Shown one piece after another: positions 1,897 to 32,000 of a stretch of 32,000 nt of DNA (position 1 is its first letter; each line of letters opens with the position of its first letter). Source of the stretch: Acaryochloris thomasi RCC1774 (GTDB lineage: Bacteria; Cyanobacteriota; Cyanobacteriia; Thermosynechococcales; Thermosynechococcaceae); NCBI RefSeq assembly GCF_003231495.1, contig NZ_PQWO01000009.1:90001-122000 (forward strand), in the 5' to 3' direction. The notes under the pieces are model-generated. The model had not been told where the DNA came from and did no database searches. It saw only the letters and a program-made list of their open reading frames with translations. Made by a program: the position numbers and the translations under genes.

Positions 1897-3012
1897 TCAG
1901 CGTGAAAGTTGTTGGCGTAGGTCACTCAGAAAAAGGTCAGTACCCAGCGGACCCAACAGAGCATGACAGAGATAGACGGTGGTGAAGTAGACTTTCCCTT
2001 CTTTGCTGGCGGGTAGAGATTGTGCGATCGCATCTCCCTCCCAGGTCTTTCTAACAGTCTGCAACTGCCGTTCTTCAGGACTTCTCGCCTTAGCTGTAAT
2101 ATCGCTGTTAAACCCTTCAATCAAAATCCAGTCCGCCTTCAGCTCCGGGAGAGCTTCCAGCGAAATCACATGACTATCCTGGTCTGACTGGGCCAGTTCA
2201 GAGGGCACCAGCACCTGAAAGCCGACTTCCTCTAAAAGGGCACCACAGGAACTATTGGGGGTTTCAATGCGAACCCCTTGATTGATTTGTTCTGAGAGCA
2301 GCAGCAGAACGTTGGGTTGTCGGGTTACAAGGGGCTTAAAGTCTTGCTTCAGTTTTGCTAAGCGCTGCTCAGATTCAGCAATTACTGCTTCTGCCTTCTG
2401 AGATTTCTGGAGCGCTTGACCGAGGGCTTTTAGATCAGATTGCCAAGTGGTTTCGGCTCCGCTGTAGTCGAATAGTAGGGTGGGAGCAATTTTTGAGAGG
2501 AGGGCGTATTCATCTTTGTTTTTAGTGATGTCTCCAAGAATTAGGTCTGGTTTGAGCTTTGCGATCGCATCTAAAGAAGGACTCTCCGCTGTGCCAACAT
2601 TGAAGGGCTGCCCCGTCATCCGCTGCCCCAAATACGGAATTTGCTCACTGGGCTGATCAAAGCGCTCGGTCGGAAACGGAAAATATTCAGCATGGCCAAT
2701 CGGCTGGGTTTCAAGAGTTAATGACAGCTCCAGCAAACTTGGCCCCAGAGTCGCCACCTTTTGCGGTCGGCCACAAACTTGAGTCTCACCAGCCTCATGA
2801 GTAATCATTCGGCAGTCTCCGCCTGACGCACTGCTATCAGAAGATACTTGATTCGGTCGCTGACAGCCTGCAGTCAAAGCAACGAAGGCGGCAAAGAACG
2901 CAGATTTCCCGATTTGGATAAAATGACTCAGTGCGATTGAGCAAAGCCTTCGCCGCTCTCCCCCCAGAATTGGGGGGCCGGGGGGGCCAATGCAGGATTG
3001 AATGCGTTTCAT
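1897..3012 (-). CDS. Iron-siderophore ABC transporter substrate-binding lipoprotein (FecB/FhuD-like)
   Basis: 371-aa ORF with a lipobox (FVALTAGC) after a long N-region. The body resembles periplasmic binding protein family 8 (PDLILGD...; DWILIEGFN). It lies 82 nt downstream of the TonB-dependent receptor on the same strand. Confidence 0.8.
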   Translation of the reverse strand: MKRIQSCIGPPGPPILGGERRRLCSIALSHFIQIGKSAFFAAFVALTAGCQRPNQVSSDSSASGGDCRMITHEAGETQVCGRPQKVATLGPSLLELSLTLETQPIGHAEYFPFPTERFDQPSEQIPYLGQRMTGQPFNVGTAESPSLDAIAKLKPDLILGDITKNKDEYALLSKIAPTLLFDYSGAETTWQSDLKALGQALQKSQKAEAVIAESEQRLAKLKQDFKPLVTRQPNVLLLLSEQINQGVRIETPNSSCGALLEEVGFQVLVPSELAQSDQDSHVISLEALPELKADWILIEGFNSDITAKARSPEERQLQTVRKTWEGDAIAQSLPASKEGKVYFTTVYLCHALLGPLGTDLFLSDLRQQLSR

Positions 3013-3094
3013 CTCAAGATGTACATATACGTTAATAGCAGATCACTGGAGCCTACGGTCCAAAATATCCTCTCCAATTGCTCAGCCCACGACT

Positions 3095-5725
3095 CTAAAA
3101 CTCCACTGAGACCGAGCCAATCACCGTAAACGGAGCGCCCGGATCATTTCCCCGCACGCGCACAGGCGACGACGTATCAGCAATATAGTCAATATTAAAA
3201 ATATTGCGAAAATTGAGCGCAAACTTCCACTTGTCTCGCTTATAGAAAAGAGCCGCATTCGTCAAAAAATAGCTGTCTAGCTCAAAGGAATTCGCGAGAT
3301 CACCTGCCCTGCGATCGACAAAGTTAAAGCCCGCACCAAAACCTAACCCCTGCAAAGCACCCGTTTGAATCTCGTAGGTTGTCCACAAATTTGCGCTGTG
3401 GGCTGGCGCACTAGGGAGCTGATTCCCCACCGGAAAGACAGTGTCTTCACTAATCTCCGCATCAATATAGGCATAGGAACCCAAAATATTCCAGCCCGGT
3501 AAAATCTCTCCCACCACATCTAGCTCCACACCGCGACTCTTCTGCTTACCTGTCGCAATAAAGAAAAACGGATTATCAGGATCTGTGCTAGCCACATTGC
3601 GGCGCGTGATGTCGAAATAAGCCAGCGTAGCCGACAGCGCCCCCTGTAAAAATTCACCCTTGACCCCCACTTCAAATCCACTGCCAGACTCAAAGGGTAA
3701 AGGGTCGCCATCCACCGTCGTTGTATCTGCAATGCTGGGCGCAAACACCTCCGAATAGCTGCCATAGAGAGATATTTCAGGAATCGGCTGATAGACAAGC
3801 CCCACTCGGGGGGTAAAAGCTTCTTCGTTTTGCACCAGCTCAGCACTGGAAGGGTCGAAGGCATTGGGGTTGATAAACGTTTTCTGCCGGAACAGATCAA
3901 AGCGTCCCCCGGCCAGAAAAATCAGGTTGGGCAACAGCTTCACCTGATCCTGAAAAAAGACACCGAGCCGATCGGTCTCAGTACTCTGATCCGTCAAGAT
4001 CGGGAGCGTATCAAAATCAGGCCGGGGTGAAGCACCAAACACGGGCGCAAAGATATCGAGCGGGAGTGGATTTGCAAGATCGATCTGCGTCAGAGAATTG
4101 AAGTTATCGCTAGAGCGGTTCAGATCAACGCCAAACAGCAACTTATGATCGACGGGTCCGGTGGACACTTCACCGACGATATTGGTCTGCAGCGCAAAGT
4201 TTTCTGCCTCCTGTGGTTGAGCTGCAAAAAAGCGAGTAATTGTATTGGTGGTCTCATCAATAGCAAACGGGAAGGCCACCTCTAAAAGCGCATTCTGCTT
4301 CGTGTAGCGAAATTTGTTGCGGACCTTCCATTGATCGCTGAAGCGGTGTTCAAAGTCGTAGCCCACATTCAGCGACTCTTCCGTGCTGATGTCGTCCGGC
4401 TCATTGCTAATCTGATCAAACGGGATATCAGCGATCCCATCGCCCACCGCCGGAATGCCGAAAAAGGGAGGCCGTCGTTCATCCAGGTATTCCAGCTCAA
4501 AGGTCAGATCCGTTTGCTTGCTGATGTTCCATTTAAGAACGGGCGAAATGAAGAAGCGTCTCTGATTAACGTTGGTGTCTTGAAAATCTCCGCCGGACTG
4601 ATAGACCGCGTTGAGTCGGTAGCTCAGATTGCCGTCCTTGGTGACAGGGCCAGAAATATCGAGTCGAGGTCGAAACAAGCCTTGAGTCCCCCCCTGAACC
4701 TCGAAGTTATAGAAAGGTTCTTCGGTGGGCTGCTTGGTAACGATATTGATCAATCCACCCGGCGCGACATCCCCAAACAGAATTGAAGAGGGTCCCCGCA
4801 AGACTTCAACTTTTTCCAAATTGGCGGTCTCCGGGAAGGTTCCTCCTGCTCCAAACTGGCGGATGCCGTTACGTAGGATGGGCACACCCTGAAATCCGCG
4901 AATGCTAAAGACAGATTGCCGCCCGAGATCTCTGCCGCCCGAGACGACACCACTAAGATTCTGAAGGGCTTCATCTAAGCGAACCACCTGCTGAGAGTCA
5001 AGTAACTCACGCGGAAGCACCTGCACTGACTGAGGCGTATCGCGTAGCGGTGTATCGGTGCGGGTGGCGGTACTGGCTTCCGGGATAAAAAAGCCCTCTA
5101 AAGCCTTCTCTGCAGTGACCGTGATTTCAAGTTCTTCTTGATCGCCCGGTTCGGGTTCGGCGGGGGCAACAGCGGTTCCCGCCGCCACTGAGAACACAAG
5201 ATTTTGCGCCTCAGTACCTACTGTTGCGGTAGGTGCAGCGTCAGTTCCCGTGATCACAACCTGTACCTGATCCCCCTCAGCCTCGAGGACGCTGACTTGA
5301 GCGATCCCAGCGACCGGGTTGTCCTGGATAAAACCAGTGCCTTCTGGTAGCGCTAATACTGCATTTGGGATCAGCGTAGTGAGTTGATTCCCCTCTGCAA
5401 TGGGGGTGGGAAGGCCAAGTATTCCGGCTTCAGTTTCTAAAATGATGCTTAGGTTCTCAGCTCCGGACTCTAGACGAATACCCGTAATTTGAGTTAGAGA
5501 TGCTTCAACTTGTGCCCTCCACTCCGTCACGCTTGTTGCAGGCTTATTTTGTAACGGCTGTTCACCTTGCAGGAGAAGCGTCGTTTTTGTTAGCTGCAGG
5601 TCTTGAATGGCTTGCCCTTCGTTTGCCTTGGCTGGGGAGGGGGGCAACAAACCTAAGGTTGCGATTATTGAAGGTAGGCCGTAGGCCATCGCAACTACCA
5701 GTCCCCCCTGATACTTCTGACCCAT
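3095..5725 (-). CDS. TonB-dependent siderophore receptor with N-terminal AMIN-like extension
   Basis: 876-aa ORF. It has a signal peptide and an approx. 150-aa AMIN-like N-domain (ITGIRLESGAENLSIILETE...QVQVVITG). The plug follows (DTPQSVQVLPRELLDSQQV...LSGV...IRGF...EKVEVLRGPSSILFG). The beta-barrel ends in an aromatic residue (...TVIGSVSVEF). Confidence 0.9.
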   Translation of the reverse strand: MGQKYQGGLVVAMAYGLPSIIATLGLLPPSPAKANEGQAIQDLQLTKTTLLLQGEQPLQNKPATSVTEWRAQVEASLTQITGIRLESGAENLSIILETEAGILGLPTPIAEGNQLTTLIPNAVLALPEGTGFIQDNPVAGIAQVSVLEAEGDQVQVVITGTDAAPTATVGTEAQNLVFSVAAGTAVAPAEPEPGDQEELEITVTAEKALEGFFIPEASTATRTDTPLRDTPQSVQVLPRELLDSQQVVRLDEALQNLSGVVSGGRDLGRQSVFSIRGFQGVPILRNGIRQFGAGGTFPETANLEKVEVLRGPSSILFGDVAPGGLINIVTKQPTEEPFYNFEVQGGTQGLFRPRLDISGPVTKDGNLSYRLNAVYQSGGDFQDTNVNQRRFFISPVLKWNISKQTDLTFELEYLDERRPPFFGIPAVGDGIADIPFDQISNEPDDISTEESLNVGYDFEHRFSDQWKVRNKFRYTKQNALLEVAFPFAIDETTNTITRFFAAQPQEAENFALQTNIVGEVSTGPVDHKLLFGVDLNRSSDNFNSLTQIDLANPLPLDIFAPVFGASPRPDFDTLPILTDQSTETDRLGVFFQDQVKLLPNLIFLAGGRFDLFRQKTFINPNAFDPSSAELVQNEEAFTPRVGLVYQPIPEISLYGSYSEVFAPSIADTTTVDGDPLPFESGSGFEVGVKGEFLQGALSATLAYFDITRRNVASTDPDNPFFFIATGKQKSRGVELDVVGEILPGWNILGSYAYIDAEISEDTVFPVGNQLPSAPAHSANLWTTYEIQTGALQGLGFGAGFNFVDRRAGDLANSFELDSYFLTNAALFYKRDKWKFALNFRNIFNIDYIADTSSPVRVRGNDPGAPFTVIGSVSVEF

Positions 5726-5784
5726 ATCACTTTACCCACAACTTGAAATGTACAGGCATAGTAAAAGAATTACAGTTGCAGCAC

Positions 5785-5825
5785 CTTTGTGAACCGGACT
5801 TTTTTCTTTGTCAAACGGACTTTTT
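5785..5825 (-). promoter_or_regulatory. Tandem 20/21-nt direct repeat upstream of the receptor gene (candidate AraC/PchR-type operator overlapping -35-like hexamers)
   Basis: Read on the minus strand: AAAAAGTCCGTTTGACAAAG (5825-5806), then directly AAAAAAGTCCGGTTCACAAAG (5805-5785). 18/20 positions are identical. The units contain TTGACA and TTCACA. The repeat lies 60-100 nt upstream of the start codon at 5725 and just downstream of the AraC gene stop at 5833. Confidence 0.35.
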
Positions 5826-5832
5826 GCAATCT

Positions 5833-6822
5833 CTAGCCCCGGATGCTCAGTTGATAGGCCTTGGGACTGACAGAGAATTTACGTCGAAATGCGGTACTAA
5901 ATGCTTCTGGATTTCGGTAGCCCACTGAGGTTGCGATCGCAGCAACGGTCAGCCTTTCTTCCTCTAAAAGCTGCTTTGCCTGCTTCATCCGATAGTCCTG
6001 CAGATAGCCAAAAACTGTAGTACCAAAGAGTTGGCGAAAGCCCTGCTTCAGCTTGCGATCGTTTAGGCCCACCTGACGCGCTAGTTCAACTAAAAGAGGA
6101 GGGTTATCAGCATTGCGGATCAGCAACTCTTGGGCCTGATGCAGCCGCTCAACCTCATCGATAGGTAACTGTGAAGCAGAGAGAGCCTGCTGAGGCCACT
6201 GATCCAACTGGAGCGCCAGGAGTTCCAGTGCTTTACTTTCGAGGTAAAGCGCTTGGGTCATACCCATATAAGGACAGTGCAAGATTTGCTGCAGAAGCGA
6301 CCGCATTGCTGAAGAAATGGGCCCTAAGGATTGGTGAAACCGCTGGCCTCGCAAACTCTGCTGCAAGGGCTGGGGGAGAGCACTATCTTGATCCAAAAAG
6401 TGAAAGTAGCCAGGATCGGCATAAATCATCACCACTTTGATCGGTTCATCTGCATACCATTCTTCGACCTCTTTTAAGTCAGGAAGATGGTATAGGTAGC
6501 TATGCCCTTTCTGCTCAATATAGTGAGGGCAAACCTCTTTGACCCCTGGTGTCTCGACCGATGACAACCCAGACAGGATGAATTTAGCCGTGACTGGGAA
6601 GCTTAATTCGTGGACTTGCTTGACTCGAAGTGTCTGCTGTAGGCGACCTTCTGTGATCTCAACTGTCAGTCCACCTCGCAGATGAAACGATTGCCTAATC
6701 CCTTTGCCGAGGCGTTTGGGTAAAACGGCAGAACGCCCCCACCCCGCCTCTTGAACGGACGGCTGATCATCGGAGGTCTCACATAGTTCTGTAAATTCTG
6801 CTGCAGTGAGGGAAATCGTCAT
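5833..6822 (-). CDS. AraC-family transcriptional regulator, PchR-like (paralog of 32-1045)
   Basis: 329-aa ORF, collinear with the first regulator. Shared blocks include YLYHLP, EEW.AD, RFHQSLG.IS, QQILHCPY.G...LYLESKALELL and LARQVGLNDRKLKQGFRQLFGTTVFGYLQ. Confidence 0.85.
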   Translation of the reverse strand: MTISLTAAEFTELCETSDDQPSVQEAGWGRSAVLPKRLGKGIRQSFHLRGGLTVEITEGRLQQTLRVKQVHELSFPVTAKFILSGLSSVETPGVKEVCPHYIEQKGHSYLYHLPDLKEVEEWYADEPIKVVMIYADPGYFHFLDQDSALPQPLQQSLRGQRFHQSLGPISSAMRSLLQQILHCPYMGMTQALYLESKALELLALQLDQWPQQALSASQLPIDEVERLHQAQELLIRNADNPPLLVELARQVGLNDRKLKQGFRQLFGTTVFGYLQDYRMKQAKQLLEEERLTVAAIATSVGYRNPEAFSTAFRRKFSVSPKAYQLSIRG

Positions 6823-6972
6823 GCCAAGGTATCTTCCAGTGCGCGTACATCAGCTACCTATGAGGTGCATTCTTGTAAAAACAGACAGTAACCTCAACTA
6901 GCAAAAATGCCCCACTGCATTTATCCAAGTGACGGCGCTCCAATCAAGGGATCGCTGTCATCTTGGTATGGC

Positions 6973-7716
6973 CTACAGTGTTGCCCACTCGTCAGGCAGG
7001 ACATTGGCCTGTAGCTCGAAGGCACCGCTACCGTCAGGCGTCAGCACGTAAGCTATTCCTTGAGGGTCTGGATAGATGCCGGTTGCGGCCTCAAAAATAT
7101 CGTCATGACCCACGAGGATCGTGTTTTTACCATCTGCAGGTGTTGCCGTCAGTAGGGGGGTTACGTTGGCCTTCATCTCTTCCACTTGCGCGTCAGTGTA
7201 GTCTTCAAAGGGCAAGAAGTTGAGTTTTGAATTTTTTGTGTGTTGACCGAAGGCTAGGTCTGCTGTTTTCCAAGCGCGACAGTACTCGCTGGTAATGACT
7301 TCACCGACGGGGATATTTTTCTCTTTAAATGCTGCGCCAATATCTTTTGCCTGCTTTTCGCCCACATCGTTGAGCTTACGCTGGGTCTCGCAATCTGTGA
7401 GATTGAGATTGGGATCAGCCTGGTCGGCATAATCTTTTTCTGTCTGAGCGTGGCGGAAGTAGATGACATGCCCCCCTTCTTTAAGTGCGCTCAAAAGTTC
7501 TGGGCCACTCAGCTTGTCTTCAAAGTCTGCGTTTGCTTGCTCGCCCTCACTGTACTCTTCACCCTCGCCGCCTTCAGGAACCTCAGCCACAACAGGTGTT
7601 TCACTAGAACCTGCTTCACCTCCTCCGGTAGATGAAACATCACTACTACAGGCTGCCACGCTAACTGCTAGTCCTAGAGCTAGAAATAGCTCTACAGTTT
7701 TAGACTTCTTAATCAT
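6973..7716 (-). CDS. Histidine phosphatase superfamily lipoprotein with acidic linker
   Basis: 247-aa ORF with a lipoprotein signal (LGLAVSVAACSS) and an acidic low-complexity linker (EGGEGEEYSEGE). It has an RHA(Q)T catalytic-type motif (VIYFRHAQTE) and a distal GH motif (ILVGHDD). Confidence 0.7.
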   Translation of the reverse strand: MIKKSKTVELFLALGLAVSVAACSSDVSSTGGGEAGSSETPVVAEVPEGGEGEEYSEGEQANADFEDKLSGPELLSALKEGGHVIYFRHAQTEKDYADQADPNLNLTDCETQRKLNDVGEKQAKDIGAAFKEKNIPVGEVITSEYCRAWKTADLAFGQHTKNSKLNFLPFEDYTDAQVEEMKANVTPLLTATPADGKNTILVGHDDIFEAATGIYPDPQGIAYVLTPDGSGAFELQANVLPDEWATL

Positions 7717-7746
7717 TGGTCCTCACATTTTTGACGATTTTATTTC

Positions 7747-7765
7747 GTTAATGAGAGTTATTATC
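7747..7765. promoter_or_regulatory. Candidate Fur box
   Basis: GTTAATGAGAGTTATTATC matches the classical 19-bp Fur consensus GATAATGATAATCATTATC at 15/19 positions. It lies 31-49 nt upstream of the start codon at 7716. Confidence 0.45.
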
Positions 7766-8036
7766 ACCCAAGATGGGCTGCTTACAGCAAAAAATATCCT
7801 TTGAAATCCGCCAAAACTCTTCTAGCAGAGAAGTAGAGGGTTCTTTTGACTTTTTTTAGGAATCAGTTACTGAGAATCTTAAGAGCTTAAGAAGCCTAAA
7901 AACGTCAACGTATTGAGCAGACGACAGGACAGTCATCTGAGGTAAGAGCAGGACAGACGCAAGATAAGTCTTCTACTCAAGGTCAAAAATGCAGGGCACG
8001 GTGTTGGGTATTCTGTCCCTATATCTAATTTAGGGG

Positions 8037-8438
8037 TTAAGGGCGACGTGTTGCGATCGCAAGTTTAGCCCCATCAATCTTGCGGATCCGGTCCATTACA
8101 GCAACCACCTGACCATGCCCCACTTGCTGGTCGGCATTGATAATCACCGTGACCTTCTGCTCATCAGTGACCATGTCCCTGATCTGACCTTCTAGAGCAT
8201 CCAGCTCTAGCGGCTTCCGGTTAAGCGCAATTTCTCCATCTGGTTCGATAGAGACCGTTACTTTTGTTGAAATCTGAGGTTTAGCCGTGCTGGCCTGAGG
8301 CAAATTAACGGGCAATCCCTCGCTCTTATTCAGAAACAGCGTCGCCACAATAAAGAAGGTCAAAATCGCAAAGATCACATCAATCATGGGGACAATATTG
8401 ATCTGAGCGGGCAAATCGGGCTCATCGGGTAGCCGCAT
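8037..8438 (-). CDS. exbD: Biopolymer transport protein ExbD/TolR
   Basis: 133-aa ORF with the ExbD signature INIVPMIDVIFAILTFFIV and a single TM. It overlaps the exbB 3' end by 17 nt. Confidence 0.9.
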   Translation of the reverse strand: MRLPDEPDLPAQINIVPMIDVIFAILTFFIVATLFLNKSEGLPVNLPQASTAKPQISTKVTVSIEPDGEIALNRKPLELDALEGQIRDMVTDEQKVTVIINADQQVGHGQVVAVMDRIRKIDGAKLAIATRRP

Positions 8439-9096
8439 GGGTTAACCTCCCTCGTTCATATTGGTGACGATAGAGCAGCTCTAGCTGACCGCCATATTCC
8501 TGAATTAAAGCTAGCTCCTTCTGGTACATTCCCCGAAATGTATTGGCAAACATCAGCGTGACAATCGCAACCACCAAACCCGTGGCAGTCGAGATTAGAG
8601 CCTCGCTGATGCCTCCAGTTACGCCGGCCGTTTCACTTCCGCCAATATTACCCAGCGTCAGGGACGCAAATGAAGTGATTAAACCCGTCACCGTCCCCAG
8701 AAGACCCAGAAGTGGTGACACGCTAATAATGGTTTCAAACGCTGTACTAAATCGTTTCAGTGTCGGGATTTCAGCTTGTGCTTCACTCTCTAACGCCAGC
8801 CGGAACTCTTCCGGCGTTGGTGCATCCAAGTTCAATGCTGCTAGAAATATGCGAGCAATCGGTAGCTTGATGTTGTCTTTGATAACACCCATTGCTTCGT
8901 AGACATTGTCTAATCTGTAGAGCTTGAAGACCCTTTGAACGAGCTGCTCTTGCTGACGATTGGTCTTTAGCCAGAAAAATAGACGCTCTGCGATGAGTGC
9001 GATCGCAACCACCGAAAGTAGCATCAGGGGTATCATCACTACCCCACCCGCAAGGAAAAAGCGGCTGATTGTCATACCTGCACTCCTAGAATCCAT
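8422..9096 (-). CDS. exbB: MotA/TolQ/ExbB proton-channel protein
   Basis: 224-aa ORF with three TM segments and the conserved C-terminal core LLGLLGTVTGLI..F......GG.....GGISEALISTATGL. Confidence 0.9.
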   Translation of the reverse strand: MDSRSAGMTISRFFLAGGVVMIPLMLLSVVAIALIAERLFFWLKTNRQQEQLVQRVFKLYRLDNVYEAMGVIKDNIKLPIARIFLAALNLDAPTPEEFRLALESEAQAEIPTLKRFSTAFETIISVSPLLGLLGTVTGLITSFASLTLGNIGGSETAGVTGGISEALISTATGLVVAIVTLMFANTFRGMYQKELALIQEYGGQLELLYRHQYERGRLTHAATR

Positions 9097-9185: not shown

Positions 9186-9204
9186 GTAAATGATACTACT
9201 TATC
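9186..9204. promoter_or_regulatory. Candidate Fur box in the exbB / tonB-like divergent intergenic region
   Basis: GTAAATGATACTACTTATC matches GATAATGATAATCATTATC at 14/19 positions. It lies in the 306-bp AT-rich spacer between divergent starts at 9096 (-) and 9403 (+). Confidence 0.35.
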
Positions 9205-15068: not shown

Positions 15069-15488
15069 TTGATTTCAATAATTTTTTATTTTTCTTCTAG
15101 CAATATAAAAAGCAGGATGACTCTGTCGAGCTATTGATGCCTTTTGACTTGGAAGAGTTGATTCAGAGGCAGTCAGCAATTCATTGATACATCTGTTGTA
15201 TACAAAGCATTCTAGCCAATAAATCTAGAGCTCTATCGCCAGTGTTCTCGGTGCCTGCACTCTAGAAACAGAAGTCTATTTGAGAAGAGGATTGGTGCTA
15301 GGACTAGTGGGGCAGCGGCATTAATGAAAGCAAATTCAATTCCATTTGCACTTTATTGATAAAATATCCTTATAGATTATGGCTCTCTGTGAACCGATAG
15401 CTGTAAGGTCAATGACTACATATCGCAGGGGATGACGGGTATTAGTTCCGAACTTGCGTTGATTTATGAATGAGGATTGTTTGCACTG

Positions 15489-16154
15489 ATGATATTTACT
15501 CTTACTAACCTGCTACCACCGGAGGAAGTTACCTCAATTGTTAACCGCTTAGATCCAGAGGATTTTATCGATGGAAAGCTGACGGCTGGATGGGCTGCCA
15601 AGAGAGTAAAAGAGAACACGCAACTGGGGAGTAAGGTCAGCTACGGTAATGAGATTAAAGAGAAGCTGAAGCAAGCTTTGATCAAGCATCAAAAATTTCA
15701 GTCTGCAGCGCGACCCAAGACCGTGCATTCCATGCTCATCAGCCGCTACGAAGCAGGTATGTCTTACGGGGCACACGTTGATAACGCGCTGATGGGGAAC
15801 CATTTACGCTCTGATCTTTCCTTTACTATTTTCCTTAACTCACCCAAAGGCTATGAGGGCGGAGAACTGATCATTCAAGAGGCTGAGCAAGATCGTGCCA
15901 TTAAGCTTGAGGCTGGCTCGGTGATTGTTTATCCATCTTCGACTCTACATAGAGTTGCTGAAGTGAAAACGGGCGTTCGACTTGTCGCTGTGGGATGGGT
16001 TCAGAGTCTATTCCGCGATCCGGCCCAGAGAGAAATTCTCTATGATCTCGATCGCGCTCGTCGCTCTATCTTTAAAACCAGTGGCAAGTCTCAAGAATTT
16101 GACTGGATTGCGAAATCAATGTCAAACCTGATGCGGCAATGGTCTGATATGTAA
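15489..16154 (+). CDS. piuC: Fe(II)/2-oxoglutarate-dependent PKHD-type hydroxylase (PiuC/YbiX family)
   Basis: The track ORF starts at a TTG at 15477. The ATG at 15489 (MIFTLTNLLPPEEV...) fits the family N-terminus better. The HxD...H facial triad context is present (YGAHVDNA ... STLHRV) and the family C-terminus follows. Confidence 0.85.
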   Translation: MIFTLTNLLPPEEVTSIVNRLDPEDFIDGKLTAGWAAKRVKENTQLGSKVSYGNEIKEKLKQALIKHQKFQSAARPKTVHSMLISRYEAGMSYGAHVDNALMGNHLRSDLSFTIFLNSPKGYEGGELIIQEAEQDRAIKLEAGSVIVYPSSTLHRVAEVKTGVRLVAVGWVQSLFRDPAQREILYDLDRARRSIFKTSGKSQEFDWIAKSMSNLMRQWSDM

Positions 16155-22519: not shown

Positions 22520-22792
22520 GTCAGAGCGATTTACTGTATCAATCCAAGCTTGCTGGGCACCGATGAACGGGAAAACCGCAAATTCAGCTATTTATCAGTT
22601 AGGGCTTTGCCCGTAAAAATCTAAGAATCTTTGAACAGTGTACAGGAAAAAGTTATTGACAATCGTTTTCTATAAGACATTAATGCTTTTTTTATAATGG
22701 AAGACTCCTGGCGTTCTAGGATTCTTCTGCCGAGAGTATTTGAGGATCATGTCGATGAGAGTATGTGTGTCACTACTGCCTAAGTCGGCATA

Positions 22793-23371
22793 CTAATGAT
22801 CATGCATATAGAGAACTTCTATACAAATAGGCAGTGAGCAGCCTTGATCAAACTCGCAACCTGCTGCGATGCCTGCGGTCACAATCTGCGAAGCTGAGGC
22901 GTTTTGTGCATAGGCTGCATGCATGGCCCCAAGGGCATATTGGCGGCCACTGCCGACGCTCCAGTACTGCCGATACTCGTTGACTTCTCTGAGCTTGCTG
23001 ATTTCAAAGAGACCGTGAGGATTCACGATGATGGCGTTGAACTGGCTGGATTCGACGGGCTGCTTATTATCACTGGTCTTGGTGTTGAGGAAGTAGTCTT
23101 TTTTCATGATCGAATGGAGTTCGAGCAGGGTTGAGTAAATCTCCATGCGATTTGAGAGTTGAAACCGGTCGGGATGCTTGAGAATGAGGTGATCCACCAT
23201 GTCAGAGAGGGTATTCCAGCCGACAATGCCGATGATGCTGTCGTTAACTTTGTGCAGTTTGTTGGCATTGGCGATGTGGGTTGATGTAGCGATGGTGGAG
23301 CCAAAACTGATTTGGGTATCACATGCGATCGCAACCTCTCCATTCTTAATCGCAGCGCAAACAACCGACAT
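22793..23371 (-). CDS. Proteasome/HslV-fold Ntn-hydrolase-like protein (Ser at the nucleophile position)
   Basis: 192-aa ORF that aligns by eye along its full length with HslV. [24 protein letters not shown] matches [35 protein letters not shown] matches [28 protein letters not shown] matches IAIGSGGPYAQAAARA. Residue 2 is Ser, which would be exposed after Met removal. Confidence 0.6.
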   Translation of the reverse strand: [192 protein letters not shown]

Positions 23372-23386
23372 ATATAGTTCTCCTGA

Positions 23387-23818
23387 TCATGAGTGAGATT
23401 TTTCAGTCGCAAAGAGTTGGGCCATATCTCTAAAGGCTTTGAACTCAAGGGCATTGCCGGAAGGATCGCGGAAAAACATCGTGGCCTGTTCCCCTGGCTG
23501 CCCTTCAAAACGAATGTAGGGTTCGATTTCAAACTGCACTCCGGCCTGAAGGAGGCGATCTCGTAATTGTTTCCAGTCCTCTAGCGTCAGTACCACCCCA
23601 AAGTGAGGAACCGGGACAGCGTGGCCATCGACGGGGTTCGAGTGAGCCTCAGCCTTGGGACTTAAATGAGCCACAATTTGGTGGCCGTAGAGATTGAAAT
23701 CAACCCAGTTTTTGGCACTACGGCCTTCGGGGCAGTTTAGGAGGCCGCCATAAAAATCTCGGGCGGTCTTAAGATCGTGGACAGGGAAAGCGATATGAAA
23801 GGGACGGAGTTCGTGCAT
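23387..23818 (-). CDS. VOC-family (glyoxalase/bleomycin-resistance/dioxygenase fold) protein
   Basis: 143-aa ORF with the typical VOC start [23 protein letters not shown] and C-terminal [12 protein letters not shown]. It starts 5 nt after the devC stop. Confidence 0.8.
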
Positions 23819-23823
23819 TGGGG

Positions 23824-25047
23824 TTAGAAAATATCGGCAGGATCAGCTTTTTTGAGTTTGCGAACTGCGATCGCACCTGCCGAGCTGCACATTAGAAAGG
23901 TCAACAAGAAAACCTGCAGCATCACATCAGGGCGCAGCACCAGCGGAATCTTTGTCAGGTAGCTGAGCAAACTATAGACGCCCACCGAAGCGGCTGTGCC
24001 AGGAATGAAGCCTAGAACTGCCAGCAGCATTGCTTCCTGCAGAACCACCATCAACAAGGCGCGATCAGCATAGCCCATCGCTTTGAGCGTGGCATATTCG
24101 GGCAGATGTTCGGCAACATCGGTGTATAAAACTTGGTATACAACAATCACCCCGACAATGAACCCCATCAACGCCCCGAAATTAAGGACAATGCCGCTAG
24201 GGTCAGACTCCCAGTAGGTCTTCTCCTTTATGATTAGCTCTTCGCGGGTAAACACTGAAACCGATGCAGGCAAATTCGCCTGCAACTGTCGCTGCACCTG
24301 GATTGGGTCAGAACCAGGCGCAAGTACCAGCAACCCTAAGCTCACGTCACGGAGGCGATCTTGACCGTAGCGCTGGGCATAGTTCCAGTCACTCATGATC
24401 ACGTGCCCCTTGGTGAACAAGGTGCTGCCAAGCTGAAAGTCACCGATCACTGAGACTCGACGCTGATCCATGACCGTGCGGACCTGATCCTGCTGGGCCA
24501 GTCGTTCTGAAATCGGTCCGAGGGAGGGCTGCGATAACCGATCAAAAAGAACGGTATCCGGTTCGCTTAGACGATTGAGCTGTTGATTCACTCCCGGTAA
24601 TTTAAAGACTGGCTGTGCTGGATTAAAGGCCAGTATTTTGACCTCATCAGGGAAAATAGAGTCGTCGGCTGGGTCAGTTGTTGATTTGCCGATTTTCTCT
24701 GGACTGACCCAGTTGGCCTCAGCGATATATAGCGGTCTGGCTGAGCGAACCCCAGCAACTGCATTCGCTTGATACAGGTAAACACGCGGGAAGGTGGAAC
24801 GTCCTAGGGCGCGAGTATAGGTCGAAATCATAAACAGCTCACCCTCTAGCTGTTCGTGGATCAGCGTAATCCCGTCAAAGAGGACCGCCCTCAAACCCAG
24901 TTGAGTGAACATGAGAATATTGGCAAAGCCAACCCCCGTGATCGCAATCACCAGCTTGACTTTTTGGTGGGTCAACTGCGCCCAGGCTAGATTGACTCTA
25001 GAGGATGCTAGCTTGAATGGCAGGGAAAAGCGCCGCTTCGGCTTCAT
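23824..25047 (-). CDS. devC: DevC-family ABC exporter permease (FtsX-like)
   Basis: 407-aa ORF. The N-terminus [32 protein letters not shown] matches DevC. A large periplasmic loop and a C-terminal FtsX-type 3-TM bundle follow. The start overlaps the devB stop (ATGA). Confidence 0.85.
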
Positions 25048-26225
25048 GGGCGATCTGACGCTAAAGCAATCGTGACGCGAACTTGCATATTCGTTAGGCC
25101 AGAGACCTTCTCATTATCGTCAGGATCAATACGAATGCTGACGTTGACAACCCTGGCATTATCATCAGTGGTGGGATTAGTCTCATCTGCCGCAATGGTG
25201 GGCTGGCCAATCTGGAGAGCAACCGTTTCTATCTGCCCTTGAATCTCACCCGCAAAGCCACCATATTCACTAATCATCGTGGCCTGTTGACCTTCGCTCA
25301 CCTTGGCTAAATCCGTCTCATAGACCTCGGCCTGCACGTACATTTGCTGGGTGCGACCCAACTCAACAATCCCGAGCTGCGTGTTGACCTGCTCACCAAC
25401 CTTCGTATTAATCCGCAGAATCTGGCCCCCGATGGGCGCTCTGACCTGAGTGTCTTCTAGATCCGCTTGGCGCTGTTCCACCTCAATCAAAGCCTGCTGT
25501 AGTTCAGCTTGGGCAATGGAAACATCGACGGGGCGCACCTGCTGCAGATCGGCGAGTCGAGCCTTTTCTTCTCTGATTTGAGCATTGAGCGTCGTGTCGA
25601 TTTTCTCTAGGGCAGCCTGTCGAGCGGCCACGGTCGCCTGAGCCGTTTCAAAATCCTGTCGGGCTGCTTCCAGCTCTGCTTTGTTAATGGCTCCTTCTTG
25701 CAAAAGCATCTGGCGTCGCCCGTAGGCTAAAGAGGCTTCTTGAAGCGTTGATTGGGCACTGGCAAGCTCTGCCTGTAGCTGTTTGCGCTCTGCCGGAAGC
25801 TGCACGTTAAGTCGTTCAATAACGGCCTGCTGAGCTGAGATCGCCCCCGGTTTTGCATCTGTCTGCTTTGCTTTCTTTAATCGGGCCTGCAGAAGTGAGA
25901 CGTTGGCGCGAGCAGCCTTGAGGTCTGCTAAACGACGGTCAGCCCCCTGCAGGATAGCAATCACCTGATTGGCCTGGACGCGATCTCCTTCTTTCACCAT
26001 AATCCGGTTAACGCGGCTGTCTTCAGCATTGGGAACAGAGAGCTTAATCACATCCCACTGAGGAATAATCTTGCCCCGCGCTACAACTGCTGTAGGAGCT
26101 TTGACCTCTTGGGCCTTAGTGGGCGGCTCTTTGAGTTGACCACAGCTAAAGATAAGAGGACTTAAGCCAATGGTCAACAATCCGATGGCTTTGAGAGGGA
26201 TGGGTAAGAAGGACAAAGGCAACAT
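25044..26225 (-). CDS. devB: DevB-family HlyD-type membrane fusion / periplasmic adaptor protein
   Basis: 393-aa ORF with an N-terminal anchor, a lipoyl-like segment (VARGKIIPQ...VKEGDRVQANQVIAIL), a long coiled-coil hairpin and a beta-barrel C-terminus. Confidence 0.85.
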   Translation of the reverse strand: MLPLSFLPIPLKAIGLLTIGLSPLIFSCGQLKEPPTKAQEVKAPTAVVARGKIIPQWDVIKLSVPNAEDSRVNRIMVKEGDRVQANQVIAILQGADRRLADLKAARANVSLLQARLKKAKQTDAKPGAISAQQAVIERLNVQLPAERKQLQAELASAQSTLQEASLAYGRRQMLLQEGAINKAELEAARQDFETAQATVAARQAALEKIDTTLNAQIREEKARLADLQQVRPVDVSIAQAELQQALIEVEQRQADLEDTQVRAPIGGQILRINTKVGEQVNTQLGIVELGRTQQMYVQAEVYETDLAKVSEGQQATMISEYGGFAGEIQGQIETVALQIGQPTIAADETNPTTDDNARVVNVSIRIDPDDNEKVSGLTNMQVRVTIALASDRP

Positions 26226-26226
26226 G

Positions 26227-27003
26227 CTAATGTTTCAGACCCTCGGGGCACAGGGCTTGGGCACAAAGTTCAGCAAGCGGTGGTTCAGCTCCCTGTAGGA
26301 AAAAGTGGTCGCCAGGAAACATGCGGAGGTTGAATTGTTCGCTGGTTTCAATCTGCCAATCCTCCAGCGTTGCAGGAGGTGCAACCGAATCGGCGAAGCT
26401 GCCTAGTGCAGTAATGGGAAAGGGAAGAGGAGCTTGAGGGTGGTACTCGTATGTTTCTAGTAGCTTAAAGTCTGCTCGAAGCGTAGGCAATAGAATCTGC
26501 ATGAGTTCTGGATGCTGTAGTATTGCTTCTGGCGTCCCTGCATAATGACGAAGTTCAGCAATAAATTGTTCGTCAGATACAGTGTGAATGGCGGGAGCCG
26601 TTGGCGGCAGGCTGGGGGCAGAGCGACCTGAGACGAAGAGGTGTTGCGGTAGAGGGGACTGATGCGATCGCAACCACCGCGCTAACTCAAAACTAATCAA
26701 AGCCCCCATACTGTGCCCAAAGAAAGCAAAAGGCCGATTTAAGTGGGGCAAAAGTGCTGCGCCTAGGTCTGCAATGAGGGACGGTAGAGTTTGGAACGGA
26801 CTTTCATTAAACCGCTGTCCTCGCCCCGGCAGTTCAACAGGACAAAGCTGGATTTGAGGTGATAAATGAGTCTGCCAGGATCGATACATTGCAGAACTTC
26901 CCCCGGCATAGGGGAAGCAAAAGAGATGAGCAACTCCTGGGCGGAGCATTTCAGGAAACCAGGGCTGCAGCTTCTTCGGTTCTGCTTTAATCATGGTTGT
27001 CAT
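26227..27003 (-). CDS. Type II thioesterase (NRPS/PKS editing TE)
   Basis: 258-aa ORF with LFCFPYAGGSSAMYRSW, the GHSMGA nucleophile elbow and a C-terminal FPGDHFF. Confidence 0.9.
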   Translation of the reverse strand: MTTMIKAEPKKLQPWFPEMLRPGVAHLFCFPYAGGSSAMYRSWQTHLSPQIQLCPVELPGRGQRFNESPFQTLPSLIADLGAALLPHLNRPFAFFGHSMGALISFELARWLRSHQSPLPQHLFVSGRSAPSLPPTAPAIHTVSDEQFIAELRHYAGTPEAILQHPELMQILLPTLRADFKLLETYEYHPQAPLPFPITALGSFADSVAPPATLEDWQIETSEQFNLRMFPGDHFFLQGAEPPLAELCAQALCPEGLKH

Positions 27004-27134
27004 GGGGTTTTTGGGAGATGCCTACATAGAATCGGATGTCTTTATCGTTGAGTTTTTGCTGTTTGTGCAGGCTAAGATAAAAAGGCCATACCACGGTACT
27101 TTGCAAGCGGTGTTGATTAACGGAGCAGCTACAC

Positions 27135-27401: not shown

Positions 27402-27413
27402 ACTGAAATTACA

Positions 27414-27671
27414 CTACTGAATAGATCGCTCAGAGGTCTGAGCTTTCATTTTTTTCCGCAGGCTCAAAGGGCGCATATCGGTCCAGGTTTTTTCGATATG
27501 GTCGAGACAGGCTTGTTTATTGCCGCTGAAGCCTGCATCTTTCCAGCCCAGAGCGTTTTCTCGCTCTTCGGGCCAAATTGAATATTGTTCTTCATGGTTA
27601 ATGACAACCTTATAGCGTTGAGTCTCGTTGGCTTCCTCTGAATACATGAAACGTTCCTTGGTGTACATCAA
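27414..27671 (-). CDS. mbtH: MbtH-like protein
   Basis: Signature motifs are present: [10 protein letters not shown]...GW...G....[17 protein letters not shown]. The true start may be the ATG at 27668, or the ATG at 27647, which has an AAGGAA Shine-Dalgarno-like sequence upstream. Confidence 0.9.
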
Positions 27672-27714
27672 TAGGTGATCAAAATGTGCAAAATCATCTG
27701 ATTTGATAGGCGAA

Positions 27715-30700
27715 TTAGGACAACTGAGGCGTTAGCAGATCGAGAGTTGCCTCAGGCGACTGGCAATGCACAATTAACGTTTCCAATTGCTGAAGATAAT
27801 TTTGAGCTAGCCTCTCAACGGTATGACTACAATAAAGCCGGTCGCTGTAGCGCCATTGCAACATGAGCTGACCCGATTGAACAATGCCGCTGATATCAAG
27901 GAGATACATGCGCCGACTCGACGACGCATGACCTCGCCCAGGGAGGAAGGGAGCGGCTGCCAATGTATCGGTTTCAGAGAGAAGAGGATCCGTTTGTCCG
28001 AGATAGTTGAATCGAACTTGTGCAGGGGGCAGAGCTTGAAACTGCCGATGGATTTGGGCATCTGCACAGAGATAGCGCAGCAGCCCAAACCCCAGTCCCT
28101 GCTGTGGCAATTGCCTGAGCGTTGTTCTTACCTCTTGGATGGAGGCTCCTAAATCATCAGGTGTATTGAGACTGAAGGTGATTGGGTAAAGCGTCGTGAA
28201 CCAACCTATCGTTCGAGAGACATCCAAATCAGAGAATATATCTTGACGACCATGTCCTTCTAAATCTAGGCGGAGGTGAGAGTGGCCCGTCCATTGCCCA
28301 AGGGTCAGCACCAGCGCCGTTAGGAGTAAGTCGTTAATCTGAGTTTGATAGGTTGCCGGTGCCTTATTGAGTAGGGCTTGGGTCAATTCTGCTGAGAGAG
28401 AACACGCTTGGGTGCATTGATGAGATAAATCGGTATCTACCTGGTCAAAATCCTGAGATAGTGGAGGAGAAGGGAGTGGGTTTAGCCAATAACCGAGTTC
28501 CTGCCGTAGCGCTGAAGATTGTGCATAGTCCTGAAGGCGAGTGGCCCAGGTCTGGAATGACGTGGTTTTTGGCGGCAGACTAATCGGCTGCCCTTGCTGA
28601 AGCTGTTGATAGAGGCGGAGTAAATCCTCTAGAAAAATGCGCCAAGAGACCCCATCAATAATCAGGTGATGGCAAACCAAAAGCAAATACTCTGGGTATT
28701 GAGGGCCAAGCTTGAACAGGACCGCTCGAATTAATGGCCCTTTGGTGATGTCAAGACTAGCCTGGATTTTGCTGGCCTGATCGCTCAAGGTGGGGCCGTG
28801 CTCTTCTGGGGGTAAGTCAGGGAGTTCCACCACCGACAAAATTGGCTTAAGAGACGCTGCTCTGATCTCCTGTTGCCACCCTTCACTGGTCAGCGTATAG
28901 CTGGCTCGTAACCCATCATGGTGCGTCAGGACTGTATCGAGTGAGGTCTCTAGATGTTGAATGACTAACGGCTGATCACTCTGTAAGAAAGTGGCCTGGT
29001 TCCAATGGTGCAGATCGGGGTTCTGTTGGGCCAAGAACCAATGCTGAATGGGGGTAAAGGGAACGGCTCCTGTCACAAGTCCCTGCTCGGCGGTAATCTC
29101 AACGGTGGTCTCTACGACCGTTGCTAATTCAGCAATGGTGGGATTTTCAAAGAGCTGCTTGGGGGTAAACCTCAGGCCCAGTTGGGTGGCGCGGCCTACC
29201 ATTTGTATGCAGAGGATGGAGTCTCCGCCAAGCTCAAAGAAGTTATCGTGAATGCTGATCGAGTCTTGCCCTAAGACCTGGCTCCACAACTGCGCGAGGG
29301 TTTGTTCTTCTTTGGTACGGGGAGCTGTGAACTCTTGCGTTTCGGAGGCGATGGGTTGAGTTGCTAGGGTGTTGCGATCGCACTTTCCATTCGCCAATTT
29401 CGGCAGCGTTCTGACGACGGCTATCTGCGTTGGTATCATCTGCTCCGGGAGCTGATTCTGTAGATAGAGTCTCAGATTTGCACTGGTTGCCCCCGGCCAA
29501 ACCTGCGGAACGACGTAGGCCACTAACTGAGTATGGCCCTGTTCATGGGCGGTTAAAACCACTGCGGCCTCTTGAATCTGTTCATGATTGAGCAGCACCG
29601 CTTCAATCTCAGCGACCTCCACCCGAAAGCCCCGAACCTTGACCTGCAGATCCTGTCGCCCCAAAAATTCGATGGAGCCGTCGTAGCTGTAGCGAGCGCG
29701 GTCGCCAGTGCAGTAGAGCCTTGCCCCCGGTTGCTCACTAAAAGGATCAGGGATAAATGCTGTGGCGGTCAGTTGAGGCTGCTGCCAATAGCCTCGGGTT
29801 ACGCCTTGCCCGCCGATATAAAGCGTTCCAGCAATGCCCGGAGGGAGCGGCTGGAGTTCTTGATCTAAGACGTAGGCTTGGGTGTTGGCGAGGGGACGCC
29901 CCAACGGCATCGTCAAAGTATCACGGGGGTGATCGTCTTCAATGTGGGTGAGAACGCCGACGGTGGTTTCAGTGGGGCCGTAGTGATTGAGAATCTGGCA
30001 GTTCGGTGACAGCGCATGAATCTGATCCACCAGACGCCAGTTCAGAGCTTCGCCGCCTAAAATGATTTGCTGATGGGGGAGAACGGGCTGTGATCCGGCC
30101 AAGAGACTCCTTAGATGAGCAGGGACAATTTTCAAAACGTCAATGTCCTGGATATCTTCGGCAAAGGTCACGGCATCTAAGCAGCGTTCGGGGGCCAGAA
30201 TATGCAGGCTGTGACCGTGGCAAAGGCAGGGAAACAAGATGGTATGGCCTAAGTCAGCGGCTAAGGTAGAAGCTAATCCCCAATGTCCGGCCTTGGGACT
30301 GTTGATGCGTTCAGAAATACCGTGGATGTAATTTGTGAGCTGGCGATGTTCAACGCCGACGCCCTTGGGTTGCCCCGTGGAACCGGAGGTGAACATGATG
30401 TAGGCCAGATTCTCTGCTGTTGCGCTGGTGTTTGGAGGTGTGGTGGGTTGCTCTGCCAGGGAGGCAATATCTTGATCAAGATAGAAAACGGGTGTGTTTG
30501 GGGGGATGCGATGGTCGACCACCGGCCTTAGGCCATCGCAAAACTGTTCCAGCGTCAGAATCAATGTCGGCTCCACAATCTCAATGCGCTGCTGAAGGGC
30601 CACTGCCGGAACCCCAGCATCGACAGGGACATAGGCCGCTCCTGCTTTTAAGATGCTGAAGATGGCGATGATTAGATCCGCGTTGCGATCGCCATACACG

Positions 30701-32000
30701 ATCACCCGATGTTCAGGGCCAATCCCAAGACTTTGCAAATAGTGGGCGAGCTGGTTCGATCGTTCGTCGAGTTGCTGATAGGTCAACTGCTGGGCAACAT
30801 CGACAAGCGCAGTTTGATTGGGGGTCAATGCAGCCTGGGATGCAAACCAGTCATGGACCGTTGGAAAAGGTGCAGGTGATGTCTGGGATGAATGCTTCGG
30901 GATTAGACCTGGTAAGGTCAAATGTTCCACGGCTTGATTAGGTGTTGCGATCGCAACGTCTAGAAGCGCCTCAAACAAGACGGCAATTTGCTCAATGCCT
31001 TGCTCTGTGAACTGCTGCAAATCGTTATGCCATTCTAGATACAGAGCCTCACCCTGCTGAATACAGTGAAGCTGAAGCTCAAAGGGATGGAGGTAGCTGG
31101 CCTGCAAGAGCGGCTGCAACGATAGCTCAGAGGTCTTGATTTCAGTGGGCCATTGCGTGTACTCAAAACTGATGCGAGGTAGAGAATCACCAGGACTGAA
31201 ATATTCTTGGTACTGCTTTAGTTCTTGAGTGCGGCTTTCAACATCCTTAAGCACATGAGTAAAAGACTGTCCGGCGGTGAGATTGATCTGCACAGGTAAC
31301 GCTTTGGCAATCAAACCTGCAACTTCTTCTAGTTCTGCGTACTTCCGCCCATCTAAGATAAGGGCTAGTTTGAAGTCGGCGGCATCGGTTAACCGCGAGA
31401 TCAAGAGCTGAAAGGTGGCAAGGTAGATGCTCCGAGTAGAAATTCCTTGATTCTGGACGAACTGAGTGACCTTAGCTACGATATGCGGGGCTAAGGTACG
31501 CGAAATGCATTGAGGGGTAAACCCCACTTCTCTGGATGGCTGGATGGCGAAGGGTAATTTAAGACTCTTAGCCGGGGATTGCCTCTCCCAATACTGACGG
31601 CCTGCAGCAGTCTCTTCTGATTCTAGTAACTCGTTTTGCCATTCCGCGAGGTCTGCATACTGCATGGGTTCGGTGGCTAGAGTCAATTGCTCACAGCCAT
31701 AGAGATCGGCTAATTCTTGGCTGAGCTGTTGCCAAGTTGCGGCATCTGTACACAGTGCGGGGAGTGCTAACACTAAGAAGGCTTGCTCGTGGTAGGGAAG
31801 CAATATGGCTTGCAAACAGGCTCCTGAAGAGAGATCGGGTAGAGCAGAGGGCCAAGTCTTTAAAAATTGATGCAGTTCTGTGCGATCGGTGGAGACGCCC
31901 TTCGCTTGCCAATGCTTTAGGGGCAGTGGGGTGACTTCTTCGATCACCATTAGCGGGACGTTCATGCCGTCCAAAGATTGAAAGCTGGTGTGCAGAATTT
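27715..32000 (-). CDS. Non-ribosomal peptide synthetase, 5'-partial in window: C-like(degenerate)-A-T-E
   Basis: The frame stays open to the window edge (..ILHTSFQSL upstream of the first listed codon, which resembles the C2 motif). The C-like domain covers approx. 30924-32000, with [11 protein letters not shown] (31732-31764) in place of HHxxxDG. The A domain covers approx. 29365-30867 ([66 protein letters not shown]). The PCP motif is FFELGGDSI with Ser at 29218-29220. The E domain covers 27718-29082 (PIQHWF, HHLIIDG at 28651-28671, [23 protein letters not shown]). Confidence 0.95.

Follow-up and report, generated by a model that had tools for sequence, protein, structure and literature searches.

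A proteasome-family gene paired with a VOC-fold gene at the tail of a putative siderophore operon in Acaryochloris thomasi

What is a gene of the proteasome family doing at the end of a non-ribosomal peptide synthetase (NRPS) operon in a cyanobacterium? The question is raised by a 32-kb stretch of Acaryochloris thomasi RCC1774 DNA (contig NZ_PQWO01000009.1; hereafter the window), in which a 192-residue open reading frame (ORF) at 22793..23371 on the minus strand, with the N-terminus MSVVCAAIK, is the last gene of a same-strand run. From the sequence it had been predicted to encode an orphan HslV-like N-terminal nucleophile (Ntn) hydrolase serving either to mature the NRPS product, or as a target mimic for self-resistance, or as a stand-alone compartmental protease. 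Here we assign the protein to the BPH family of proteasome homologues, and argue that, together with the VOC (glyoxalase-fold) gene directly upstream, it forms a module linked to iron stress rather than to one particular NRPS product.

Family membership, active site and start of the protein

Judged by profile, pairwise and structural comparison, the protein is a Ser-1 member of BPH, a family of HslV-derived proteasome homologues, with the full catalytic apparatus. PF00227 (Proteasome) matches residues 6-166 (E 2.3e-7, 31.1 bits against a cut-off of 22.4) and is the sole Pfam family above its curated cut-off. In a phmmer search of the PDB the BPH chains 5ovu (E 1.2e-33) and 5ovs/5ovt (2.1e-26) stand far ahead of HslV (0.07). 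The same order is seen in structure: an AlphaFold2 model derived from an alignment of 23 sequences (mean pLDDT 85.7, pTM 0.85) matches proteasome-family chains exclusively in Foldseek, the top six PDB hits being BPH chains (5OVS, 5OVT, 5OVU; TM 0.84-0.91), with HslV chains at TM 0.63-0.77. The proteasome-type Ntn fold that this comparison had been proposed to reveal was thus recovered, in agreement with the PF00227 profile, and the placement against the related families, which had likewise been suggested, resolves as BPH. The series of homologues runs continuously down to the BPH of Variovorax and Aquabacterium, with 37-42% identity to betaproteobacterial BPH.

HslV itself was considered and rejected: the NCBIfam HslV models score far under their cut-offs (NF003964, 26.6 bits against 137; TIGR03692, 25.6 against 157.75), the best HslV in the PDB search is at E 0.07, and there is no adjacent hslU in the window. 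The full-length resemblance to HslV that had been noticed by eye is therefore genuine but distant, and the label of an orphan or unclassified HslV gives way to membership of a published family. Indeed, the traits that had made the gene look unusual, namely its orphan status, Ser1 and the lack of HslU, are published traits of that family.

BPH structures have been solved for Thiobacillus denitrificans (Td-BPH; 5OVS/5OVT) and Cupriavidus metallidurans (Cm-BPH; 5OVU) by Fuchs et al. 2018 (PMC5777263), who described tetradecameric double rings with an elongated, highly acidic pore loop and found no AAA+ partner in operons or pull-downs. BPH is further marked by a 7-fold symmetry of the double ring and an acidic inner cavity. 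The active site is labelled covalently by epoxomicin and MG132, and Thr-1 BPH gives a mechanism-based morpholino adduct with epoxomicin. Reported gene contexts include argG, the pyruvate dehydrogenase operon and Hsp33; for these stress-linked operons a role resembling that of an uncapped proteasome was proposed, and a cofactor, an activator, a substrate-delivery factor or a specialised substrate was postulated (PMC5777263).

The residues expected of such an enzyme are in place. Alignment of 193 distinct family members shows D18, K38, G51, G140 and G142 to be invariant and S141 to be present in 185; D18, K38, G51 and S141 match Asp-17, Lys-37, Gly-50 and Ser-139 of Td-BPH. The catalytic set of the window protein thus comprises Ser-1 (ORF residue 2), Asp17 (D18), Lys37 (K38), the oxyanion Gly50 (G51) and the GSG at 140-142. 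The lysine of the ANKLHKV segment, which had been pointed out as lying near the Lys33 position, is this invariant K38. Of the 193 sequences, 106 have Ser and 86 have Thr at position 2. According to the published rule, BPH outside Betaproteobacteria, with Cyanobacteria named among the hosts, carries Ser-1 (PMC5777263). Among the sequences collected here (loci L008/L094, L011 and others) the rule is not followed throughout: some BPH from outside Betaproteobacteria, such as that of Parasphingorhabdus (MTVICAA), are Thr-1, and many BPH loci assigned to the betaproteobacterium Rubrivivax are Ser-1 (MSTVVVAR). Several NCBI records of the family, including that of a 97%-identical relative, are misnamed 'MFS transporter' (P0001, P0083, P0087), which hides BPH from keyword searches.

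The start of the protein is well defined. The ATG at 23369-23371 is the earliest start codon past the upstream stop, and it is preceded, at a spacing of 8 nt, by an AGGAG Shine-Dalgarno sequence read from the DNA (23380..23384, minus strand); the VOC gene ends at its stop codon (23387-23389) 5' of this AGGAG, which falls within the 15-nt gap between the two genes. With no in-frame start further upstream and the AGGAG at this distance, the N-terminus is therefore Met-Ser without a propeptide, just as had been predicted. Serine at position 2 permits removal of the initiator methionine by methionine aminopeptidase. For Cm-BPH, this removal has been demonstrated directly (PMC5777263).

Pairing with a VOC gene and the altered pore loop

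The gene immediately upstream (23387..23818, minus strand) encodes a 143-residue protein of the VOC / glyoxalase fold (PF00903). The coupling of BPH to it is tight and probably translational. Comparison of related loci (numbered L001 onwards) shows that the pairing is a property of the cyanobacterial branch: VOC lies directly upstream of BPH in seven of the eight cyanobacterial lineages, the exception being L007, with gaps of 0 nt in four lineages and of 6, 13-15 and 64 nt in the others, and the BPH sequences of the VOC-coupled loci are 73-97% identical. Across 86 loci, the upstream gene encodes the E2 component of a 2-oxoacid dehydrogenase (PDC-type operon) in 51 cases, VOC in seven and RibD in six, the rest being singletons; a profile of this VOC has no match in about 80 BPH loci from outside the cyanobacteria. 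The seven VOC cases include L101 (1153-2154), where a non-cyanobacterial BPH of 52% identity has a member of a different VOC subfamily (PF00903, E 4e-12) 3 nt upstream, with DsbC and a CMD/AhpD-like gene on the flanks, possibly an independent recurrence of the pairing.

The same branch is small and confined to cyanobacteria. A search of 5.8 billion protein clusters returned about ten clusters at least 69% identical to the query, below which identity drops to 60% or less and the sequences are of marine proteobacterial type; in a neighbour-joining tree a single bipartition isolates the cyanobacterial set exactly. Three relatives at 52-57% identity were all that JGI metagenomes yielded, none of them a further member of the cyanobacterial clade. 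Within the clade four cysteines do not vary: C5, C17 (beside D18), C172 and C178, the last two flanking the EFD motif.

The clade also departs from the rest of the family in the pore loop, defined here as the segment between the conserved YFL and P-x-ES motifs (between H2 and S7). Its net charge is 0 or +1 in all 22 entries of the cyanobacterial clade and -1 to -7 in all 164 others parsed; 29 further entries, in which the loop pattern was unmatched, were left out of this count. In the window protein the loop, NTKTSDNKQ, near residues 96-104, carries a net charge of +1 and is 9 residues long, as against mostly 8 in other BPH. The highly acidic pore loop, a hallmark of BPH, is hence missing from the cyanobacterial clade, and the change in charge coincides exactly with the VOC-linked clade. 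Only in the core of the loop (residues 104-109) does the pLDDT of the model fall below 50, which parallels the crystal structure of Td-BPH, where the loop is disordered as well (PMC5777263).

What the VOC protein does is harder to read. Residues H8, H46, H51, H72, E31 and E110 show no variation, and H66 and E125 scarcely any. The family is very large (more than 8000 candidates were scored), and relatives at 70-77% identity occur in Sphingomonas, Croceibacterium, Bacteroidota, Planctomycetes and Gemmatimonadales. No NCBIfam family matched; the best PDB match is an uncharacterised structural-genomics protein, 3RRI (E 1e-13), and a literature search under COG3565, our guess for the COG of this family, returned nothing relevant. 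In one case, Croceibacterium (L096, 1-5420), a 73%-identical VOC gene directly follows sucA, sucB and lpd, an arrangement that mirrors betaproteobacterial BPH behind the pyruvate dehydrogenase E2 gene (51 of the 86 loci). The pattern of conservation is what would be expected of a metal-dependent enzyme with a universal substrate, and not of a bleomycin-type binding protein dedicated to a single product.

A bolder reading would make VOC the missing functional partner of BPH, the two forming a dedicated two-component system of iron-starved cyanobacteria in which the re-charged loop has co-evolved, for example for a peptide siderophore or an iron-protein substrate. We regard this as speculative and rather improbable; if it were true, however, the cassette would offer the first experimental handle on the protease function of BPH.

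The siderophore island and the iron setting

The claim that BPH closes an NRPS-linked operon stands. The same-strand order is NRPS, MbtH, thioesterase, DevB, DevC, VOC, BPH, and a 273-nt gap separates BPH from the next gene beyond; from the thioesterase to BPH, neighbours either share 4 nt or are separated by 1-15 nt. All on the minus strand, the run consists of an NRPS module of C-A-T-C architecture (27715..31974; 77% identical to the L001 NRPS and 45% to an NRPS of the cyanochelin B cluster), an MbtH-like protein (27414..27671; 79% identity to the PF03621-annotated L001 gene), a stand-alone, type II-like thioesterase (26227..27003; PF00975), a DevB-family membrane fusion protein (25044..26225; TIGR02971) and a DevC-type ABC exporter permease (23824..25047; TIGR01185, 350 bits), followed by VOC and BPH. 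A scan of 22400-27800 for promoters and terminators gave counts no higher than in shuffled sequence, and no terminator after BPH. The 410-nt gap between MbtH and the thioesterase could house an internal promoter for the thioesterase-to-BPH part; an 88-residue ORF (27135-27401, plus strand) lies in this gap on the opposite strand. A DevA ATPase does not follow DevB and DevC (23824-26225 in the window; likewise in L088), where the VOC-BPH pair occupies the place that devA has in devBCA operons, and the annotated ORFs of the window do not include an ABC ATPase. As had also been noted, there is no HslU-type partner: neither the window ORFs of at least 100 residues nor the related loci L001-L005 and L086-L088 include an AAA+/HslU protein.

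Elsewhere in the window, an iron-siderophore uptake block (1897..9096, minus strand) contains a FhuD-like binding protein (1897-3012), a TonB-dependent receptor (3095-5725) with an N-terminal AMIN domain (PF11741, residues 83-177), one of the two AraC regulators in the window (5833-6822), ExbD (8037-8438) and ExbB (8422-9096). Divergent from ExbB is a 596-residue ORF (9403-11193, plus strand) without a Pfam or NCBIfam match. A PiuC/YbiX-type Fe2+/2-oxoglutarate dioxygenase is encoded at 15477..16154 (plus strand), and its 75%-identical homologue lies directly downstream of the L001 BPH. The transport cassette for cyanochelins is described as including TonB receptors with an AMIN domain as well as DevBCA pumps (bioRxiv 10.64898/2026.07.30.741596), and this receptor class is reported to be exclusive to cyanobacteria and tied to cyanochelin uptake (2026 preprint). 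The best plasmid match of the NRPS, at 45% identity, is an NRPS of the cyanochelin B cluster on plasmid 2 of Leptolyngbya sp. NIES-3755 (the location of the cluster on the plasmid was taken from PMC12628792), and that cluster shares the arrangement NRPS, TauD, NRPS with loci L001 and L002. The window thus reads as a cyanobacterial island for the biosynthesis and uptake of a siderophore, most likely of the beta-hydroxy-aspartate type.

Does the pair belong to this pathway, then, or to the conditions under which the pathway is used? In half of the cyanobacterial lineages, that of the window included, the pair stands behind a thioesterase. In L088 (BPH 97% identical to that of the window) the upstream genes are likewise thioesterase, DevB, DevC and VOC, and the other neighbours in both loci are genes for a PEP-CTERM protein and a glycosyltransferase. 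L001 (83%) has NRPS, TauD, NRPS, MbtH, thioesterase and VOC upstream, with convergent PiuC-like genes, and the upstream order is the same in L002 and L003 (76%). In L006, an Acaryochloris metagenome-assembled genome (78%), a thioesterase at the contig end and VOC precede BPH, and the surroundings comprise a UPF0014 (FetB-like) gene with an ABC ATPase, two FecCD permeases, a second ABC ATPase and a flavoprotein. At other loci the pair is found with no NRPS in view in the fetched sequence: in L004 and L005 from TARA (74-76%) an Hsp70-like gene and VOC are upstream, and a flavoprotein, three CP43/IsiA-like genes and flavodoxin are nearby; L086 (79%) has VOC upstream and a CP43/IsiA-like gene; L087 (80%) has VOC upstream and RTX proteins. 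L007 (72%) has no adjacent VOC, but a two-domain VOC gene and a DJ-1/PfpI gene lie a few kb upstream. Iron-related neighbours thus occur at every cyanobacterial locus with readable neighbours except L087 and L007.

Two further recurrences were seen near these genes. A thioredoxin-reductase-like Pyr_redox_2 flavoprotein of 318 residues, which could be a ferric-siderophore or ferredoxin-type reductase, accompanies the pair in two lineages (L004 6048-7004, L005 1085-2041, L006 6598-7554). Large RTX/cadherin-repeat proteins recur near cyanobacterial BPH in four independent lineages (window 12957-15068 and 16297-19977, minus strand; L007 7839-9890; L086 1335-2627 and 6204-8357; L087 656-3139 and 4719-5657).

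The distribution of the pair bears directly on the idea that BPH, possibly with VOC, is an amidase of the siderophore pathway that either trims a leader or acyl group during maturation or hydrolyses the ferric peptide siderophore, once imported, in the cytoplasm for iron release. Despite an NRPS identity of just 67-77%, the window and L088, L001, L002 and L006 (the last as far as its contig reaches, to the thioesterase) all retain the order NRPS, MbtH, thioesterase, VOC, BPH; siderophore permease genes flank the pair in L006, and the alteration of the pore loop in exactly the VOC-linked clade would fit a change of substrate. Ntn-hydrolase acylases such as PvdQ are, moreover, established siderophore maturation enzymes, the cyanobacterial CcsQ has been linked to cyanochelin C (bioRxiv 10.64898/2026.07.24.740629), and BPH is suspected of a narrow substrate range (PMC5777263). 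At loci where no NRPS is visible, however, the pair is also found beside isiA and flavodoxin, or beside RTX genes. BPH is likewise missing from the characterised cyanochelin B cluster and its plasmid: none was found on the Leptolyngbya NIES-3755 plasmid, the only plasmid match being a Ralstonia megaplasmid. Known siderophore acylases are periplasmic and belong to the unrelated penicillin-acylase Ntn family, whereas BPH lacks a signal peptide, and a cage of 14 subunits would be an odd design for work on small molecules. We therefore consider an amidase role unlikely; the predicted function in product maturation is conceivable but not favoured, weakened as it is by the NRPS-free loci and the BPH-less cyanochelin B plasmid.

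The same loci bear on target-mimic self-resistance, in which BPH would be an inhibitor-insensitive copy or decoy protecting against a proteasome-inhibiting NRPS product and VOC would sequester the compound. Extra beta subunits do occur in the salinosporamide cluster, binding-type resistance proteins exist within the VOC fold, and the covalent binding of epoxomicin and MG132 to BPH active sites makes a BPH-directed inhibitor chemically conceivable. But the cluster is siderophore-like (TonB, ExbBD, FhuD and MbtH, with TauD in the syntenic loci and an NRPS homologous to one of cyanochelin B), and as far as the window shows its genes, no marker of a proteasome-inhibitor cluster is among them. Each locus showed a single BPH copy (the search covered loci, not whole genomes). 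A target-mimic role is unsupported because the VOC-BPH pair occurs without any NRPS in view. Nor does the neighbouring VOC look like a sequestration-type resistance protein, as had been suggested: it retains His and Glu residues of metal-ligand type and is 70-77% identical across unrelated phyla and contexts. We give self-resistance hardly any credence.

The explanation that we favour, and hold to be reasonably probable, is a portable VOC-BPH module linked to iron stress and built around an ATP-independent compartmental peptidase that is not specific for the NRPS product. The two genes move together, being found at an NRPS tail, at a siderophore-permease locus and at isiA/flavodoxin loci; we therefore see in them a portable iron-stress module rather than a piece of the NRPS pathway. 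Of the three roles originally proposed, the stand-alone compartmental protease comes closest, but it leaves out of account the conserved partner VOC and the setting of iron stress.

By analogy with characterised family members, such a module might work as follows. Methionine aminopeptidase would take off Met1, and the free amine and hydroxyl of Ser-1, together with Asp17, Lys37 and the Gly50 oxyanion hole, would attack peptide bonds. The subunits would assemble into a closed double ring with the active sites inside and no need for an ATPase. In the window the pair sits at the tail of a cyanochelin-like siderophore operon and would most likely be co-transcribed with it under iron scarcity; BPH would clear peptides or damaged and unfolded proteins independently of ATP as an accompaniment to the iron-starvation response, and VOC would serve as the small-molecule detoxifying or converting enzyme of the two-gene stress module. 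Iron starvation in cyanobacteria comes with oxidative stress. Neighbours at L007 (DJ-1/PfpI, VOC), L094 (AhpC, GFA) and L101 (DsbC, CMD/AhpD-like) loosely fit a stress or electrophile theme.

Several points weigh against this explanation. The iron link is guilt by association. Weak Fur-like sites are found in intergenic positions, at the ExbB promoter (9186-9204; 14 of 19 positions, shared with the 596-residue ORF), upstream of the L001 MbtH gene, before the L004 Hsp70-like gene that precedes VOC-BPH, and upstream of the L007 BPH; with 14-15 matches out of 19 to an E. coli consensus, they are too weak to serve as evidence. The contigs without a visible NRPS are just 5.7 to 57 kb long, so that these genomes may encode an NRPS elsewhere, and the position of the pair behind an NRPS thioesterase in four of eight lineages also fits a pathway-specific role. 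The VOC family, which elsewhere sits in unrelated contexts (after sucAB-lpd in Croceibacterium, after a Usp gene in Roseimaritima, after an amine oxidase gene in another bacterium), gives no functional anchor. Finally, the word peptidase is itself an analogy, drawn from active-site geometry and from the inhibitor labelling of Thr-1 relatives: purified BPH showed no detectable proteolysis of standard substrates under many conditions (PMC5777263).

This last observation could also be taken to mean that the ring is catalytically idle and acts as a scaffold, a chaperone-like cage or a regulator, the more so as Ser-1 is a weaker nucleophile than Thr-1 in proteasomes (PMC5777263). The catalytic residues, however, are invariant across the 193 sequences, the cyanobacterial clade included, which implies selection on catalysis, and the morpholino adduct formed by Thr-1 BPH with epoxomicin is mechanism-based. 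An idle ring is thus very unlikely in our view.

Comparison with known systems

In the literature searched, the cyanobacterial VOC-BPH cassette, the loss of the acidic loop and the placement in iron and siderophore loci appear to be undescribed, and it is helpful to set them beside the systems that they most resemble. A proteasome-family gene inside a natural-product cluster recalls SalI. SalI-type proteins are true 20S beta subunits with propeptides, found in hosts that possess a 20S proteasome along with a sensitive housekeeping copy, whereas the gene described here is not confined to a biosynthetic cluster, and the cluster in question is siderophore-like and homologous to a cyanochelin B NRPS. 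For genome mining this carries a caution: a proteasome-family gene that ends an NRPS cluster need not signify a proteasome inhibitor or a resistance gene.

PvdQ and CcsQ offer a different parallel, as Ntn hydrolases in or beside NRPS siderophore clusters, and a functional analogy is possible. They are large, two-chain, periplasmic enzymes of the penicillin/cephalosporin acylase type with a signal peptide and autoproteolytic activation. The window protein has PF00227 as its sole Pfam match above the cut-off, has 192 residues and uses its N-terminus itself as the nucleophile. The 'novel cyanobacterial acyl hydrolases' of cyanochelin C were looked into and set aside, being of the PvdQ/cephalosporin-acylase type and so of a different family.

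Closer by descent is CPH, a group I proteasome homologue that forms a small cluster radiating from BPH and occurs in cyanobacteria (Fuchs, Alva & Lupas 2021, PMC8665760); it is reported also from Firmicutes, Actinobacteria and phages as a cluster apart from BPH. The strong, continuous similarity of the window protein to BPH argues for BPH as the more probable assignment. HslV, the evolutionary parent of BPH, shares the Ntn fold that lacks C-terminal S12/H5 elements, and its catalytic constellation is no different. It stands apart by its Thr-1, its short basic pore region and its hexameric rings, and by its obligate partner HslU, encoded alongside.

BPH itself remains the best match. The window protein is of similar length and has the same fold, carries its nucleophile directly after Met, keeps Asp17, Lys37, Gly50 and GSG, has an elongated pore loop that is disordered in the model, and lacks an AAA+ partner. 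BPH is a structurally solved proteasome homologue, and the clade described here is a lead to its function: the VOC neighbour, the altered loop and the iron setting bring that function within reach of concrete experiments. The clade differs from the rest of the family in that the pore loop is neutral or slightly basic here and strongly acidic in BPH, and the gene stands behind VOC in iron and siderophore loci, whereas elsewhere it is mostly found behind the E2 gene of a 2-oxoacid dehydrogenase.

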